Under the pieces are notes generated by a model. It was not told the DNA's origin and ran no database searches. It saw only the letters and a list, made by a program, of their open reading frames with translations. The translations under genes and the position numbers were made by a program. This document shows, in pieces, positions 43,256 to 54,288 of a DNA stretch of 64,000 bases (within the stretch, counting starts at the first letter, position 1; each line of letters begins with the position of its first letter). Origin of the DNA: a phage; assembly GCA_022897995.1 (NCBI GenBank), contig GCA_022897995.1_4763.1; one strand, written 5' to 3'.

Positions 43256-43846
43256 ATGTCTAATCTCTTTAACTATGCTAACCCTAGCAACTGGCAGATC
43301 AATATTCCAGATGGTCAACTAACAAAAGGCTTTACTTTAAATGCTCAAGGTGTTACACTTCCTGCTATAACCATTCCACCGACTAAGCAAGTTGCTGGTC
43401 AATATGGTTTGGCGGTCGCTGATTATCCGTCTAGTCATGTAGAGTTTGACCCGTTGGTAGTCCGGTTTATTGTCGATGAGCATTTGGAAAGCTATCTAAA
43501 CCTTTACACATGGATGCTTTCTATAGTAGACTACAATAACGGTAACTCCACTGCGTGGAAGGATTCAATGCCGGAAGCCGTTCAAGTTCACATGATGGAC
43601 AATGAACGCCGTAACATTGTATGCACCTTTAACTTTTATGGTTGTTGGTGTTCACAATTGGGGGAACTTGAGTTAACATACACCGATGATATGCATGAAT
43701 CTCTGGTATGTACTGCAATTCTTCCATTTAAAACAATGAGCATTGAACGTGATGGTCAACTGATCGTTCCTCGCCCTGCAATTCAGGCGGCGGAACGTCA
43801 GCGAGTGGAAGGTATTAAAGCTATGCACCCTGCTTTTAGAAAGTAA
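43256..43846 (+). CDS. 3: putative tail completion / tail tube terminator protein gp3
   Basis: 196 aa; GAGGAA RBS; T4 position between genes 2 and 1; assignment by synteny. Confidence 0.55.
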   Translation: MSNLFNYANPSNWQINIPDGQLTKGFTLNAQGVTLPAITIPPTKQVAGQYGLAVADYPSSHVEFDPLVVRFIVDEHLESYLNLYTWMLSIVDYNNGNSTAWKDSMPEAVQVHMMDNERRNIVCTFNFYGCWCSQLGELELTYTDDMHESLVCTAILPFKTMSIERDGQLIVPRPAIQAAERQRVEGIKAMHPAFRK

Positions 43847-43861
43847 TAAGAGGCTTATATA

Positions 43862-44518
43862 ATGAAATTGATTGCACTTTGTGGTAAAAAGCGAGTAGGA
43901 AAAGACACTGCCGCGTTAATCATTGATGGACATAGTTATCAACTGGCAGCGCCTATCAAAGAAATCTTATGCGAATGTCAACCGGAATTAGGACTGACTT
44001 ATCTTGACTTTGACGGGTTAGGGCGTGACAGAGAAGCCGATCTAGGTATTGATACCTATACCGCGCATAAGTGGTTTATTCAGTGTCTGCTTATGTTAGA
44101 TTCGAAGTATGGCGGTAGTTCCTTTACTTGTGATCGTCTGGCTGAGATTTACAAGGTCGTTAATGAGATCGGCGAAAAACATAATAACGTCTGGTCTATT
44201 CGTCTCATGTTAACCACTCTCGGTACTGATATAATGGTTAACTTGATCAATCCGCTTTATTGGTGTAATCTCTTCGTGAATGAGTTTATGAAGCGCAAAA
44301 ATGAAGAAGGGTATTTTGTAGTGGTTGATGTGCGTCAGCCTATTGAAATTGCTCTCATGCGTTCTATGGGTGCTAAGGTGTTGCATATTCAGCGTGATAC
44401 TGGTATTGTATCGACTCACTCCACCGAAAAAGGAATTGTGCCTATTGACGGTGAAACAATTATCATAAATAATGGTACATTAGAAGAATTTGAAAGCGCG
44501 ATTCTCGCGAACATTTAA
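43862..44518 (+). CDS. 1: deoxynucleoside monophosphate kinase gp1
   Basis: 218 aa; P-loop MKLIALCGKKRVGKDT and ..QLAAPIKE.., ..LGTDIMVN.. match T4 gp1. Confidence 0.85.
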   Translation: MKLIALCGKKRVGKDTAALIIDGHSYQLAAPIKEILCECQPELGLTYLDFDGLGRDREADLGIDTYTAHKWFIQCLLMLDSKYGGSSFTCDRLAEIYKVVNEIGEKHNNVWSIRLMLTTLGTDIMVNLINPLYWCNLFVNEFMKRKNEEGYFVVVDVRQPIEIALMRSMGAKVLHIQRDTGIVSTHSTEKGIVPIDGETIIINNGTLEEFESAILANI

Positions 44519-44550
44519 TAAAAAGTTATCAACAAGTAGGAGATGTGAAT

Positions 44551-44811
44551 ATGTCCAATCAGCATGAACAAATGATTAATGTCCTGAAAGTACGTCTGTT
44601 TGACACTCAAGAAAAGGCCGCATTCTTAGAAGGCCAACTGAAAGATCGTGAGCGTGTATTAATGGAACTGGTACGCATTCTTGGTATTCAGCCAGACGAA
44701 AACGGCACTGTTTCCCTTGATGCTATTGTCGAAGAAGTAAAAGCACTTCTCCCTAAAGACGAAGCAGCGGAAGACGCTAAAGAGGAAGTAGAACTGATCA
44801 CGGAGGCTTGA
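44551..44811 (+). CDS. 57A: tail fiber assembly chaperone gp57A
   Basis: 86 aa coiled-coil; AGGAG RBS then ATG 44551 (ORF track starts GTG 44545); T4 position between 1 and 57B. Confidence 0.55.
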   Translation: MSNQHEQMINVLKVRLFDTQEKAAFLEGQLKDRERVLMELVRILGIQPDENGTVSLDAIVEEVKALLPKDEAAEDAKEEVELITEA

Positions 44812-44813
44812 TT

Positions 44814-45278
44814 ATGACCCCGTTTCGAGAATCCGTTAAAGGTACATATGCGGCGGTTAAATTCACTGAGGATACACTAGACCGCATTGAAAAATTGCAG
44901 GAGTTCTACGATCTGCCTAATGCCGTTCCTCGTGATAAACTGCATAGCACTATCTTATATTCTCGTGTTTATGTTCCGTTTATCCCAGAAGAAGGGGAGA
45001 AGTTCTTAGGCTCTCTATGCCATCTGAAAGTGTTTGAAACTCAATCCGGTACTAATGCGCTTGTGTTGGCATTTGAAAGCGACTACATGCAATTCAGACA
45101 CGATATCGGCACTGCTTTAGGTGCGACGTGGGATTATCCTGAATATGTACCGCATATCACGCTTTCTTATGATGTTGGTGCGCGTAAATTTGGCACTGAC
45201 CTAGAGTTCGATTTAGAGATTGTCCGATCTCATGAGTATGTCGAAGATCTAGACCTGGAGTGGACGACCAAACTGTAA
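44814..45278 (+). CDS. 57B: 2H phosphoesterase, 57B/Acb1-like (anti-CBASS nuclease candidate)
   Basis: 154 aa from ATG 44814 (GGAGG RBS); two H-x-T/S-x motifs (HSTILYS and HITLSY); T4 57B position. Confidence 0.6.
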   Translation: MTPFRESVKGTYAAVKFTEDTLDRIEKLQEFYDLPNAVPRDKLHSTILYSRVYVPFIPEEGEKFLGSLCHLKVFETQSGTNALVLAFESDYMQFRHDIGTALGATWDYPEYVPHITLSYDVGARKFGTDLEFDLEIVRSHEYVEDLDLEWTTKL

Positions 45279-45285
45279 TTTTATA

Positions 45286-45316
45286 CCCCGAAATTTTTTC
45301 GGGGTTTTTTGTTTTT
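45286..45316 (+). terminator. intrinsic terminator
   Basis: CCCCGAAA-TTT-TTTCGGGG hairpin plus T-run. Confidence 0.7.
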
Positions 45317-45321
45317 ATGTG

Positions 45322-45350
45322 TTGACAACCATAAACGACTATAGCATAAT
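45322..45350 (+). promoter_or_regulatory. sigma70-type early promoter (PeSL-like cassette)
   Basis: TTGACA 45322-45327, 17-bp spacer, CATAAT 45345-45350; conserved leader ..CATCGAAACGAAACAC..AGGAGAATCAAAATG. Confidence 0.65.
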
Positions 45351-45387
45351 GCACACATCGAAACGAAACACACTTAGGAGAATCAAA

Positions 45388-45765
45388 ATGATGATGATGT
45401 TTAAAGATAAATTCGAATGTCACTACACCCGTAACTTTGACTTAGTATCCCGCTACTACATTCATAAAGAAACTGGCACGCAAGTAGTTCTTGAATCTCA
45501 CAGCGAAGTAGGATTCGATTCAACAAAAGTAGCAATTAGTGCTCGCTTCTGGGATAACGGCAAATTTGCTTATGTTGCTTGGAACGACGACGAAAATGTA
45601 ATTACAGTAGCTTTCGGTGATGACTACTACACTAAAAAGACTTTCGATAGCAAGCCATCAAATGAATACCTGAAAGCGTATGTTCAGCACATGTTCCAAC
45701 GTGTTCTGACCGGAATGGAAATCAATGTCATGAAAGACATTGTAGACGAAGTAAAATATTCTTAA
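45388..45765 (+). CDS. hypothetical protein (125 aa)
   Basis: AGGAG RBS then ATG 45388 (ORF track starts 45319). Confidence 0.55.
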   Translation: MMMMFKDKFECHYTRNFDLVSRYYIHKETGTQVVLESHSEVGFDSTKVAISARFWDNGKFAYVAWNDDENVITVAFGDDYYTKKTFDSKPSNEYLKAYVQHMFQRVLTGMEINVMKDIVDEVKYS

Positions 45766-46000: not shown

Positions 46001-46204
46001 ATGGAATTGGATATGGTTAAAGCAAAATTTATGGGTAAGGATAAGAAAGGTAAAACATTTGTTATTAATAGAACATTGTTTCGATCTGACCTTAAGTGGG
46101 TAACACAACAATTTGCGGAAGTCAACGAGGCGGTAGTGACCTGCTTTGTTGGTGATAAGAAAGTTTTTGAAATTGACCGTCGTGGGGTGTCTAATGATCG
46201 CTAA
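46001..46204 (+). CDS. hypothetical protein (67 aa)
   Basis: AAGGTG RBS then ATG 46001. Confidence 0.5.
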   Translation: MELDMVKAKFMGKDKKGKTFVINRTLFRSDLKWVTQQFAEVNEAVVTCFVGDKKVFEIDRRGVSNDR

Positions 46205-46391
46205 ACTGTTTAGCAATACTTTGTTTCTGATTGCATTTGTTTTCTTTCTGTGTCTGATCATCGGTGTGATTGCAGTCGGTAGTTATTCCGGTATTACAAT
46301 AGATGATTTTTGTATGTTGGTTTTCTTTTCAAGTGTTCCTACACTCCTGATCGCTGTATGTGGTGCTTTTAGATGGATCTGTGATCTATGA
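46194..46391 (+). CDS. small membrane protein (65 aa)
   Basis: GTGGGGTG RBS then ATG 46194 overlapping upstream stop; two predicted TM helices. Confidence 0.45.
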   Translation: MIAKLFSNTLFLIAFVFFLCLIIGVIAVGSYSGITIDDFCMLVFFSSVPTLLIAVCGAFRWICDL

Positions 46392-46494
46392 CTGAACAGG
46401 AACGAATGATGTTGATAGGTGGACCGGAGTTCACTAAATTTGATGCAATTCTTATTGCGTTGGGGTTTCTTATGATCTGTTGTATGGTGGCGCT

Positions 46495-46719
46495 ATGAGT
46501 AGCATAAAATATTTTGCTTTCTTGTGTTTTATGATGTTCTTTACATTCCTTGCATGTGTTTTCTTTACATGGCTTGCTCATGTTGATAATGCAACCGGAC
46601 CGTTTTACTTCTTCTGTGTATTGTCTGTGTTGACTGGTGCTCTTGTTACGTGGATGATTCGAGATTGTTACGGAATGTATAAGTTTGAAAAGACTCGACC
46701 GAAATGGGGCAAACGATGA
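46495..46719 (+). CDS. small membrane protein (74 aa)
   Basis: ATG 46495 after GGTGG; hydrophobic; ORF track starts TTG 46480. Confidence 0.45.
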   Translation: MSSIKYFAFLCFMMFFTFLACVFFTWLAHVDNATGPFYFFCVLSVLTGALVTWMIRDCYGMYKFEKTRPKWGKR

Positions 46720-46898
46720 AATTATTTGCGTGGCTAATTATTTTAAATGTAATTATTAAGACTGTTCTCGCTGGTTTACTGATGATACATAGCACGGAAC
46801 CAGAAGAAGCATTAACGTATTGTGTTGCTTATGTGTTGGGATTCTTGCTTACTGCGTGGATGTGTGATGAATATCGAAGAATTGAGGTAAAACCATGA
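46716..46898 (+). CDS. small membrane protein (60 aa)
   Basis: ATG 46716 (ORF track starts 46704); hydrophobic. Confidence 0.4.
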   Translation: MKLFAWLIILNVIIKTVLAGLLMIHSTEPEEALTYCVAYVLGFLLTAWMCDEYRRIEVKP

Positions 46899-47113
46899 AA
46901 ATGACCTTTTATATCTTAGCAAGTATCATGCTTGTGATCTCTTCTGCCTTATTTGCATTTCTTACCGTTTGGGGGATCTGCACTGACGCGAAACCGTGGG
47001 ATATAGTAGAAAATACGGTTATGTTTATTATCAGTGTCATGTGTCTTTTTGATGCATTTAACTCTATCAAGGAAGAAGATCAAAAACGTCGCGAGAGAAA
47101 GCGATATAAATAA
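46895..47113 (+). CDS. small membrane protein (72 aa)
   Basis: GAGGT RBS then ATG 46895; hydrophobic N-terminal two thirds. Confidence 0.5.
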   Translation: MKMTFYILASIMLVISSALFAFLTVWGICTDAKPWDIVENTVMFIISVMCLFDAFNSIKEEDQKRRERKRYK

Positions 47114-47261: not shown

Positions 47262-47288
47262 AAGCCACTCTTCGGAGTGGCTTTTTTA
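47262..47288 (+). terminator. intrinsic terminator
   Basis: AAGCCACTC-TTCG-GAGTGGCTT hairpin plus T6. Confidence 0.7.
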
Positions 47289-47313
47289 TTGCCTAAATTT
47301 TTTAAAAAAGTTG

Positions 47314-47342
47314 TTGACACCAGATCACGCCTATAGCATAAT
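47314..47342 (+). promoter_or_regulatory. sigma70-type early promoter (PeSL-like)
   Basis: TTGACA 47314-47319, 17-bp spacer, CATAAT 47337-47342; conserved leader CCATCGAAACGAAACACAC. Confidence 0.65.
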
Positions 47343-47388
47343 ACACCCATCGAAACGAAACACACTTTCTAACTAGGAGAATCAAATT

Positions 47389-48504: not shown

Positions 48505-48606
48505 TACATTAAACTAGAAAATAGCACTTTTTGTTAAAACTTAATGAGGTGGCTAGAGTATAGTTACCTCATCGAAACGAAACACGAACTACTAAGGAGT
48601 ATCAAA

Positions 48607-48933
48607 ATGAAACCAGTATCTGTTAAAGTTATCTTCTCTGAATCTTCTGTATTCGCTAACGCAAACGAAGTATTCCACTTCGAAGACTTCGAGCGTAAAG
48701 CACAGGACGCGGCAGCAAAAGCCTATGAAAGCGAATATGACAAAACTCAAATCGAGGTTACTTTCGAAAACGGCACTACTTACGCTTGCCGCCTTGACTT
48801 GGGTGATCGTCTGTCTGGCTTCCGTCACCATGTAGAGAAGACAATCGCTTTCTCTAAAACCGAAAAAGGAAAACACTACTTTTCTGTATTCGGTACTGAA
48901 AATCTGGATTTCTTGAAAACGGTTTCTTTCTAA
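48607..48933 (+). CDS. hypothetical protein (108 aa)
   Basis: AAGGAG RBS then ATG 48607 (ORF track starts 48544); conserved leader CATCGAAACGAAACAC upstream. Confidence 0.55.
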   Translation: MKPVSVKVIFSESSVFANANEVFHFEDFERKAQDAAAKAYESEYDKTQIEVTFENGTTYACRLDLGDRLSGFRHHVEKTIAFSKTEKGKHYFSVFGTENLDFLKTVSF

Positions 48934-51160: not shown

Positions 51161-51550
51161 ATGTTTAAATTATCTCAAAGAAGCAAAGATCGGCTTGTTG
51201 GTGTACATCCAGACCTGGTAAAAGTCGTTCATCGTGCATTAGAACTGACTCCGGTCGATTTTGGTATTACGGAAGGTGTGCGTAGTCTCGCAACGCAAAA
51301 GAAATATGTTGCGGAAGGTAAATCTAAGACTATGAAATCTCGTCATCTTCATGGTTTCGCGGTTGACGTTGTAGCGTATCCGAAAGATAAGGATACATGG
51401 AACATGAAATATTACCGCATGATCGCTGATGCATTTAAACAAGCTGGTCGAGAATTGGGTGTTCCTGTTGAATGGGGCGGGGATTGGACCAGTTTCAAAG
51501 ATGGTCCTCATCTACAATTGCCTCACAGCAAATACCCAGATCCACAATAA
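51161..51550 (+). CDS. peptidase M15 family peptidoglycan hydrolase (L-alanyl-D-glutamate peptidase-like, putative endolysin)
   Basis: 129 aa; zinc-ligand motifs SRHLHGFAVDV and DGPHLQL; N-terminal GVHPDLVKVVHRA..VDFGITEGVRS resembles T5-type endolysins; GGGGG RBS. Confidence 0.65.
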   Translation: MFKLSQRSKDRLVGVHPDLVKVVHRALELTPVDFGITEGVRSLATQKKYVAEGKSKTMKSRHLHGFAVDVVAYPKDKDTWNMKYYRMIADAFKQAGRELGVPVEWGGDWTSFKDGPHLQLPHSKYPDPQ

Positions 51551-52232: not shown

Positions 52233-52649
52233 ATGGAATTTAAAGCAATTCAAATCATGAAAGGTGAGCATAAAGGTACTATTATCGGTGGATATTTCGC
52301 CCCTATGATTCTGGTATCCGAACCTAAAGCACTGATCGGCGCTAAAGTAATTGTTAGTAAAACTTTCGCAGAAGACCATGTGATCACCGCAGAAGACGTC
52401 GATTCGCTGGCACTGCACACAACTAGCTTCCGTCCTGTTATTGTAGATAATGGTGCTCCTGTTGTCGAGGGAGGCCAGCATTTGAATGTTAACGTATTGT
52501 TACGAGAAATGTTGCTGGACGCGGTTGAACATCCTGAGAAGTACCCGCAGCTTACAATTCGCGTTTCTGGTTACGCAGTGCGCTTCAATAGTCTGACTCC
52601 AGACCAGCAGCGTGACGTTATCGCGCGTACCTTTACCGAATCTCTCTAA
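52233..52649 (+). CDS. grcA: autonomous glycyl radical cofactor (GrcA/YfiD-like; T4 Y06I-like)
   Basis: 138 aa; C-terminal glycyl-radical signature ..[33 protein letters not shown]; AGAGGTG RBS. Confidence 0.75.
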
Positions 52650-53455: not shown

Positions 53456-53650
53456 ATGCAAGTTTATACCAATAGCAATAAAGGCAATGATATCACACCG
53501 GGAAAGATGTATGATTTTACCCCGGCACGAGACGACGAACATCCACCGACTATCGGGTATATTGAAGATGATGCGGGGTTTCGTATTACGATCCTTCTTG
53601 ATGGTGGATGTTCTCATCTTCGCGGTGATCGTTGGGAGTTAGTACCATGA
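53456..53650 (+). CDS. small protein, CSHL-motif paralog 1 (64 aa)
   Basis: AGGAG RBS; motif GYIEDDAGFRITILLDGGCSHLRGDRWELV shared with the next two ORFs. Confidence 0.5.
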   Translation: MQVYTNSNKGNDITPGKMYDFTPARDDEHPPTIGYIEDDAGFRITILLDGGCSHLRGDRWELVP

Positions 53651-53892
53651 TGTATGTGATGACACCTTATAGTAACCGCAAGTATATTACACCAAATGCA
53701 CTGTATGAATATACACCACATGAAAGATTTGCGAATAGTGGTTATATCCGTGATGATAAGGGACACCAGATTTTTATTTGTCTTAAAAATTGTGCACACT
53801 TAGACGGTCGAACATGGACACTGGTCGAAGAACCAAAACAACCTGAGAATAAAGGTCTTTGGAATGTGCTAAAAAAATTCTTGAAAAAGTAG
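53647..53892 (+). CDS. small protein, CSHL-motif paralog 2 (81 aa)
   Basis: ATG 53647 overlapping upstream stop (ATGA); motif GYIRDDKGHQIFICLKNCAHLDGRTWTLV. Confidence 0.5.
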   Translation: MMYVMTPYSNRKYITPNALYEYTPHERFANSGYIRDDKGHQIFICLKNCAHLDGRTWTLVEEPKQPENKGLWNVLKKFLKK

Positions 53893-53949: not shown

Positions 53950-54288
53950 ATGAGTGTTAAAGAAGTATTTGTTTATACTGACTATGACAGGTGCGCCTAT
54001 CTCACTGCTGGAAAACTTTACCGTTGTGAGATTATTCATGGTACGCTAGGTCGAATTATGTGCGATCCGATTACAAAATTGTGGAAAAACAATCCTAGTG
54101 AGCGAGAAACTATTATTAACCTAGATTCAGACGGTTGTTCACATTTGGACTATAGAAAATGGCATATCGTGACACATGATGCTTATGGTATTCATCTTGC
54201 TACTAAAGAATTGACTATTGACAAGTTCAAGTTTAAAGAAATCCCGTTTGTATACTGGCTTCGCAATTTGTTTAAGAAAGGAGAATAA
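53950..54288 (+). CDS. CSHL-motif paralog 3 with N-terminal extension (112 aa)
   Basis: AAGGAG RBS; motif ..IINLDSDGCSHLDYRKWHIV. Confidence 0.5.
   Translation: MSVKEVFVYTDYDRCAYLTAGKLYRCEIIHGTLGRIMCDPITKLWKNNPSERETIINLDSDGCSHLDYRKWHIVTHDAYGIHLATKELTIDKFKFKEIPFVYWLRNLFKKGE

Follow-up and report, generated by a model that had tools for sequence, protein, structure and literature searches.

A probable Krischvirus orthologue of the T4 anti-CBASS phosphodiesterase Acb1 in the gene 57B position of an RB49-like coliphage

Results

Gene order and expression signals at the acb1 locus

The window, i.e., the whole 64,000-nucleotide stretch of phage DNA that was analysed, belongs to a Krischvirus, an RB49-like coliphage of the Straboviridae, and the 3 kb around the gene described here showed 98% identity to UPWr_E1, vB_EcoM_011D4, RB49 and about 55 other phages. 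On the plus strand, positions 44814..45278 contain an intact open reading frame of 154 amino acids plus a stop codon, running from ATG 44814 to TAA 45276-45278, which we assigned as the acb1 (gene 57B) coding sequence from its matches to Pfam, the PDB and T4 57B. A mechanical ORF list placed the start at TTG 44808, whereas the annotated relatives use the ATG. A GGAGG ribosome-binding site was read from the sequence at 44802..44806 (plus strand), 7 nt 5' of this ATG and within the 3' end of gene 57A.

The gene closes a syntenic block that begins with the gp3 tail terminator (43256-43846), followed on the plus strand by gene 1, encoding a dNMP kinase (43862..44518; Pfam DNMK, E 4e-68, and T4 gene order), and gene 57A, encoding the tail-fibre chaperone (44545..44811; Pfam GP57, E 2.9e-6; phrog_1002 tail fiber chaperone, E 7.9e-26). 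Gene 57A may start at GTG 44545 or ATG 44551, either of which is annotated in relatives. A first-pass annotation of this DNA had placed a protein of about 154 residues directly after 57A, in a position conserved with T4. The length and the identity of the upstream gene were both confirmed, and the order gp3, gene 1, 57A, 57B is common to the window, T4 and RB49, whose own 2003 annotation names gene 57B; the gene thus lies where acb1 lies in T4.

The TGA stop of 57A (44809-44811) is separated from the ATG of acb1 by a gap of 2 nt, whereas their T4 counterparts share an ATGA overlap. Because the stop is so close to the start, acb1 is probably translationally coupled to 57A, and we infer that the two genes are also co-transcribed. 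Scans for sigma-70 and T4 late promoters found no convincing promoter directly upstream of acb1: no T4-type late promoter (TATAAATA) was present on the plus strand between 40.3 and 47.1 kb, and the upstream sigma-70-like sites were mediocre, the best of them (44445-44473, 10/12 positions in the promoter scan) falling inside gene 1. In T4, the 57B transcript is middle/late, and Acb1 activity shows about 15 min into infection. The terminator scan revealed an intrinsic terminator at 45285..45313 (plus strand) that closes the gene 1-57A-acb1 unit. Its stem at 45285-45305 (ACCCCGAAA/TTTCGGGGT) has 9 pairs, of which 5 are GC, and a run of T comes after it.

The variable region downstream of acb1

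The conserved block ends with acb1, and a hyperplastic region begins directly behind it. In T4, 57B is followed by ipI and then a tRNA cluster, whereas here it is followed by a PeSL cassette, ORFans and dmd. The PeSL cassette (45285-45385) combines the terminator stem with a near-consensus sigma-70 early promoter of the next gene at 45322..45350 on the plus strand (TTGACA, 17 nt spacer, CATAAT; 11/12 positions in the scan). The variable region starts at this promoter, which plays no part in acb1 expression. PeSL elements have been described as 'mobile regulatory cassettes' in RB49 and phi1 (PMC2839356). A second copy lies at 47262-47388, in which the promoter and 5'UTR are repeated at 47314-47365, and each cassette consists of a GC stem-loop terminator, an AT tract, a sigma-70 promoter and a conserved 5'UTR (CATCGAAACGAAACACAC...TAGGAGAATCAAA). 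We observed that the two cassettes enclose a group of ORFans together with dmd, and that a 41-nt piece of the first (45341-45381) shows 92.7% identity to T4-like phages of Cronobacter, Klebsiella and Enterobacter.

The interval between the cassettes holds a 125-aa ORFan, a 52-aa ORF, dmd and five small ORFs belonging to PHROGs of unknown function. The gene dmd (46001-46204, plus strand; Pfam Dmd, E 1.2e-14; PDB 5HY3_B, E 2.7e-12) encodes the antitoxin against RnlA/LsoA and is found 723 bp downstream of acb1, which brings two anti-defence genes into one small region and is consistent with an anti-defence neighbourhood. This arrangement resembles that of T4, in which acb1 adjoins ipI much as acb1 here adjoins the anti-defence gene dmd. 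The 125-aa ORF (45388-45765, plus strand) falls in phrog_15253, of unknown function, with a sub-threshold match to Pfam Gp30.7 (E 0.0043) and no meaningful sequence match in the PDB; because it directly follows acb1, where T4 has ipI, it can be considered a candidate anti-defence ORFan. The five very small overlapping ORFs (46191-47113, plus strand; 36-75 aa) each belong to their own PHROG, found in relatives; by eye they look strongly hydrophobic and are possibly membrane-spanning.

In a tblastn search of the window, the T4 genes IpI, Vs.4 (Acb2), vs.3, vs.5 and trna.2-4 gave nothing better than E 0.15; this search for other T4 anti-defence genes covered the 64 kb of the window, from a genome about 100 kb longer. 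Scans for tRNA genes and Rfam families returned no match in the whole 64-kb window, whereas the T4 region 3' of 57B/ipI, to which the window is syntenic, carries a cluster of eight tRNAs together with the small RNAs rnaC and rnaD. The early region also encodes an LPD25-domain protein (48544-48933, plus strand; E 2.6e-14), a Peptidase_M15_4 protein (51161-51550, plus strand), whose RB49 annotation reads 'putative endolysin', and a glycyl-radical GrcA-like Vs.6 (52233-52649, plus strand). In addition, three tandem small ORFs of 64, 81 and 112 aa (53456-53650, 53647-53892 and 53950-54288, plus strand) are paralogues with 34-43% identity to one another; they share the C-terminal motif GC(S/A)HL..R.W.(L/I)V, match no Pfam family, and are situated between nrdC.11 and regB, where T4 has vs.3, vs.4 and vs.5.

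Membership in the Acb1 family

To place the protein in a family, we compared it with Pfam, the PDB and T4 57B. It matched the Pfam family PF23474, 'Anti-CBASS protein Acb1', with an E-value of 1.5e-51 and 174.4 bits against a gathering score of 27, and the match extends over residues 9-152 of the protein and positions 1-143 of the 144 in the profile. Two HxT triplets alone could have arisen by chance; because the whole protein fits the Acb1 profile, the match goes beyond chance. Among all PDB sequences, the only match was the Acb1 of Erwinia phage FBB1 (7T26/7T27), with an E-value of 1.8e-43 and 53% identity. In a full-length global alignment, the protein showed 46.8% identity to T4 57B (NP_049750.1). 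The report of T4 57B as Acb1, which the first-pass annotation had mentioned, is correct (PMC9117128).

Conservation of the catalytic and substrate-binding residues

In T4 Acb1, the catalytic tetrad HxT/HxT is formed by H44, T46, H113 and T115, the substrate bases stack on the aromatic residues Y12, W74, F107 and W147, and E141 contacts the adenine N6, which explains the requirement for adenosine (PMC9117128). In the global alignment, all nine of these functional residues corresponded to identical or same-class residues in the protein examined here. The first HxT motif, H44-S45-T46 (44943..44951, plus strand), maps to T4 H44 and T46, and the second, H114-I115-T116 (45153..45161, plus strand), maps to T4 H113 and T115; both align column for column with those of T4 57B and FBB1 Acb1. 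The two motifs had been noticed at first pass as HSTILYS and HITLSY, and indeed these occupy residues 44-50 (His codon 44943-44945) and 114-119 (His codon 45153-45155). However, the spacing of about 80 residues then given for them did not hold, as the histidines are 70 residues apart.

All four catalytic residues (H44, T46, H114 and T116) are invariant in the alignment of 62 family sequences. The pocket aromatics Y12, F74, Y108 and W150 correspond to T4 Y12, W74, F107 and W147, respectively, and E144 corresponds to T4 E141. Among the 62 relatives, tyrosine occupies the Y12 column in 61 sequences, glutamate the E144 column in 56 and tryptophan the W150 column in 47. The column of position 74 holds phenylalanine (41) or tryptophan (21), while that of position 108 holds phenylalanine (42), tyrosine (15), histidine (4) or tryptophan (1).

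In T4 and FBB1 Acb1, a C-terminal lid (residues 145-152) closes over the substrate (PMC9117128). By residue mapping, the corresponding lid segment spans residues 148-154 here (45255..45275, plus strand) and includes W150, the counterpart of T4 W147. The lid sequence LDLEWTTKL is present, although its last four residues (151-154) were modelled at pLDDT <50 in the ligand-free model. The sole structural peculiarity is a two-residue insertion at residues 132-133 relative to both T4 and FBB1 Acb1.

Predicted structure

An AlphaFold2 model built on 62 homologues reached a mean pLDDT of 91.6 and a pTM of 0.84. When it was searched against the PDB with Foldseek, the model superimposed on the crystal structure 7T26 with a target-normalised TM of 0.97 and an RMSD of 0.9 Å over 138 columns; for 7T27, the complex with cGAMP, the TM was 0.93. 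Far weaker matches came next, with a TM of about 0.7 for the 2H phosphodiesterase of a Burkholderia phage and about 0.5 for E. coli LigT. The predicted structure is thus a compact 2H phosphoesterase fold that matches the solved Acb1.

Distribution, selective constraint and database naming

Homologues of this gene were found in more than 1,400 phage records. Within the phage collection, acb1 was present in all 59 Krischvirus records, at 96.7-99.3% nucleotide identity; in tblastn, protein identity was at least 99% in 56 records, while every Acb1 from outside Krischvirus showed less than 60%. Comparison with the RB49 and Skers copies revealed 7 and 9 nucleotide differences, giving 16 synonymous codon changes and no non-synonymous one, a pattern of purifying selection.

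One copy departs from this pattern. In phage Cognac (MZ504877.1, locus 215-680), acb1 carries a single-base deletion of the C at nucleotide 192 of the gene, which splits it between the two HxT motifs into ORFs of 64 and 82 aa, and its six other nucleotide differences are all synonymous. Two explanations offer themselves for the frameshift, a sequencing error and a natural knockout; barring the former, this copy indicates that a phage can do without acb1, at least under laboratory conditions.

The feature itself is known from the databases: the identical sequence bears the UniRef name 'Anti-CBASS protein Acb1 n=16 Tax=Krischvirus', in agreement with Pfam, which places the cluster in PF23474. 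None of the GenBank and RefSeq Krischvirus records listed carries an anti-CBASS label. RB49 gp57B itself is a 'conserved hypothetical protein' in GenBank and an 'RNA ligase' in RefSeq, and the labels of the Krischvirus records include 'hypothetical protein', 'RNA ligase', 'gp57B conserved hypothetical protein', 'Phage protein' and a truncated 'putative RNA 2'. Our literature search turned up no paper that treats Acb1 in combination with either Krischvirus or RB49. The sole connection came from Hobbs et al. (2022): the phage list of their original lysate screen, with 57 phages, includes vB_EcoM-G2494, called an RB49 phage (PMC9117128). The Acb1 of vB_EcoM-G2494 is one residue apart from the one described here (D129N). 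The same search returned no assay of a recombinant Krischvirus Acb1 and no in vivo CBASS test of a Krischvirus.

Discussion

Probable function of the Krischvirus protein

The profile match, the modelled structure, the conserved residues and the synteny all support the earlier suggestion that this phage carries an Acb1-type factor. We consider it very probable that 44814-45278 encodes the Krischvirus (RB49-type) orthologue of T4 gp57B/Acb1, a 2H phosphodiesterase that degrades CBASS signals, although its identity to the characterised enzymes is just 47-53%. From the analogy with those enzymes, we infer its catalytic activity, its substrate range and its anti-CBASS effect in vivo.

T4 Acb1 degrades cGAMP, cUA and cAAA, and the nine further homologues tested by Hobbs et al. 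all cleaved cGAMP and cAAA (PMC9117128). Cleavage takes place 3' of adenosine, requires no metal and proceeds via a cyclic phosphate intermediate; rings of more than three nucleotides do not fit, and the activation of the effectors Cap5, Cap4 and CapV is blocked (PMC9117128). T4 Δacb1 shows a >300-fold defect on CBASS hosts and grows normally without CBASS.

The Krischvirus enzyme is expected to act as T4 Acb1 does. It would be a compact, metal-independent 2H phosphodiesterase that captures cyclic di- and trinucleotide signals containing at least one adenosine (3'3'-cGAMP, cUA, cAA, cAAA and cAAG). The signal would be held in a U-shaped pocket, with its bases stacked on Y12, F74, Y108 and W150, its adenine N6 read by E144, and the C-terminal lid closing over the ligand. 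H44, T46, H114 and T116 would then catalyse a reaction in which the 2'-OH of the adenosine attacks the 3'-5' bond, passing through a 2',3'-cyclic phosphate intermediate to a linear 3'-phosphate product. With the signal destroyed, the CBASS effectors would stay inactive, and the cell would not kill itself before the phage has finished.

Alternative explanations

The protein could have a genuine Acb1 fold and yet act mainly on a target other than CBASS signals, or have a spectrum unlike that of T4 Acb1; for example, it might cleave the cA3 of type III CRISPR or other adenosine-containing messengers, or spare 2'3'-c-di-AMP. Viral 2H phosphodiesterases that share one active site vary strongly in the substrates they accept, and their specificity is set by the protein core rather than the lid (bioRxiv 10.1101/2025.08.21.671373). 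T4 Acb1 is itself promiscuous and triggers Panoptes by degrading 2'3'-c-di-AMP, and the Krischvirus protein combines 47% identity to T4 Acb1 with a two-residue insertion. However, every named substrate-contacting residue of Acb1 is conserved here, F74 and Y108 are shared with FBB1 Acb1, whose crystals showed hydrolysis of 3'3'-cGAMP, and none of the nine other homologues of Hobbs et al. failed to cleave cGAMP and cAAA. We therefore regard a different main target or spectrum as very unlikely.

A related scenario, which we hold to be very unlikely, is that the Krischvirus Acb1 lineage, which is >99% conserved within the genus and shows <60% identity to all other Acb1 proteins of the phage collection, evolved a substrate range shifted from that of T4. 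If this were true, the shifted enzyme might spare 2'3'-c-di-AMP and so avoid guards of the Panoptes type while still erasing CBASS signals, and the Cognac frameshift would reflect counter-selection by guard systems.

The protein could also be a generic LigT-like 2H enzyme, i.e., an RNA 2',3'-cyclic phosphodiesterase or '2'-5' RNA ligase' acting on RNA ends, for instance in RNA repair. Its names point in this direction, since phrog_755 is labelled 'RNA ligase' and many GenBank and RefSeq records read 'RNA ligase' or 'putative RNA 2',3'-cyclic phosphodiesterase'. There are also weak Pfam matches to 2_5_RNA_ligase2 (PF13563, E 0.0011) and LigT_PEase (PF02834, E 0.057), but they score 19.4 bits against a curated cut-off of 27 and 14.1 against 23.3, respectively, compared with 174 bits for Acb1. 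LigT structures do turn up in the fold search, although with a TM of about 0.5, an RMSD of 6-7 Å and 10-13% identity, far from the near-complete superposition on Acb1. Moreover, the protein has the base-stacking aromatics specific to Acb1, the glutamate that reads adenine and the lid sequence at its C-terminus, and the 'RNA ligase' label is older than the 2022 characterisation of the family. Because the LigT and 2'-5' RNA ligase models of Pfam score below their cut-offs, this name in PHROGs and RefSeq is a superfamily-level legacy and not a family assignment, and we find a LigT-like role very improbable.

Finally, a morphogenetic helper of 57A in tail-fibre assembly, as the historical name 57B implies, would suit a gene that adjoins 57A, is probably coupled to it and keeps this pairing in T4-like phages, but it can hardly be entertained for a protein that has the fold of an enzyme and a catalytic tetrad without defects, given that T4 lacking acb1 grows normally without CBASS and that 57B was non-essential on K-12 in a T4 transposon library, in which it was important only on the CBASS host.

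Implications

If the protein acts as Acb1, this RB49-type phage is predicted to resist, like T4, the many CBASS systems whose signals are cyclic di- or trinucleotides containing adenosine, and to be sensitive to guard systems that detect Acb1 activity, such as Panoptes. These predictions may be useful in the choice of therapeutic coliphages, as many Krischvirus isolates have been proposed for therapy. The main practical use of the present result is the repair of annotation in GenBank and RefSeq, as UniRef and Pfam are already right.

Comparison with known systems

The nearest entry in the record is RB49 gp57B (AAQ15381.1, deposited in 2003; UniRef Q7Y455_BPRB4), an identical protein whose DNA differs at 7 positions, all of them synonymous. 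Among the characterised enzymes, FBB1 Acb1 (7T26 apo; 7T27 with 3'3'-cGAMP) is 53% identical and colinear with the Krischvirus protein over residues 10-153. The two proteins share the HxT/HxT tetrad, the pocket aromatics Y, F, Y and W, the glutamate and the lid motif LDLEW; however, FBB1 Acb1 comes from another phage genus, its N-terminal 9 residues differ, and the Krischvirus protein has two extra residues in the 127-135 region. Relative to T4 Acb1, the founding member of the family, W74 is replaced by F74 and F107 by Y108. Both replacements are aromatic, F74 is the majority residue of the family, and FBB1 Acb1, which has been crystallised and is catalytically competent, carries the same two residues. 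The PDE-9 of Burkholderia phage BCSR5 (9Q2G, 9Q2Y) and E. coli LigT have in common the 2H fold and two HxT/S motifs. Their identity to the Krischvirus protein is 10-18%, with a TM of 0.5-0.7 and an RMSD of 3-7 Å, and the lid of PDE-9 is N-terminal, whereas that of Acb1 is C-terminal. PDE-9 and LigT are thus relatives at the level of the superfamily and belong to another family.
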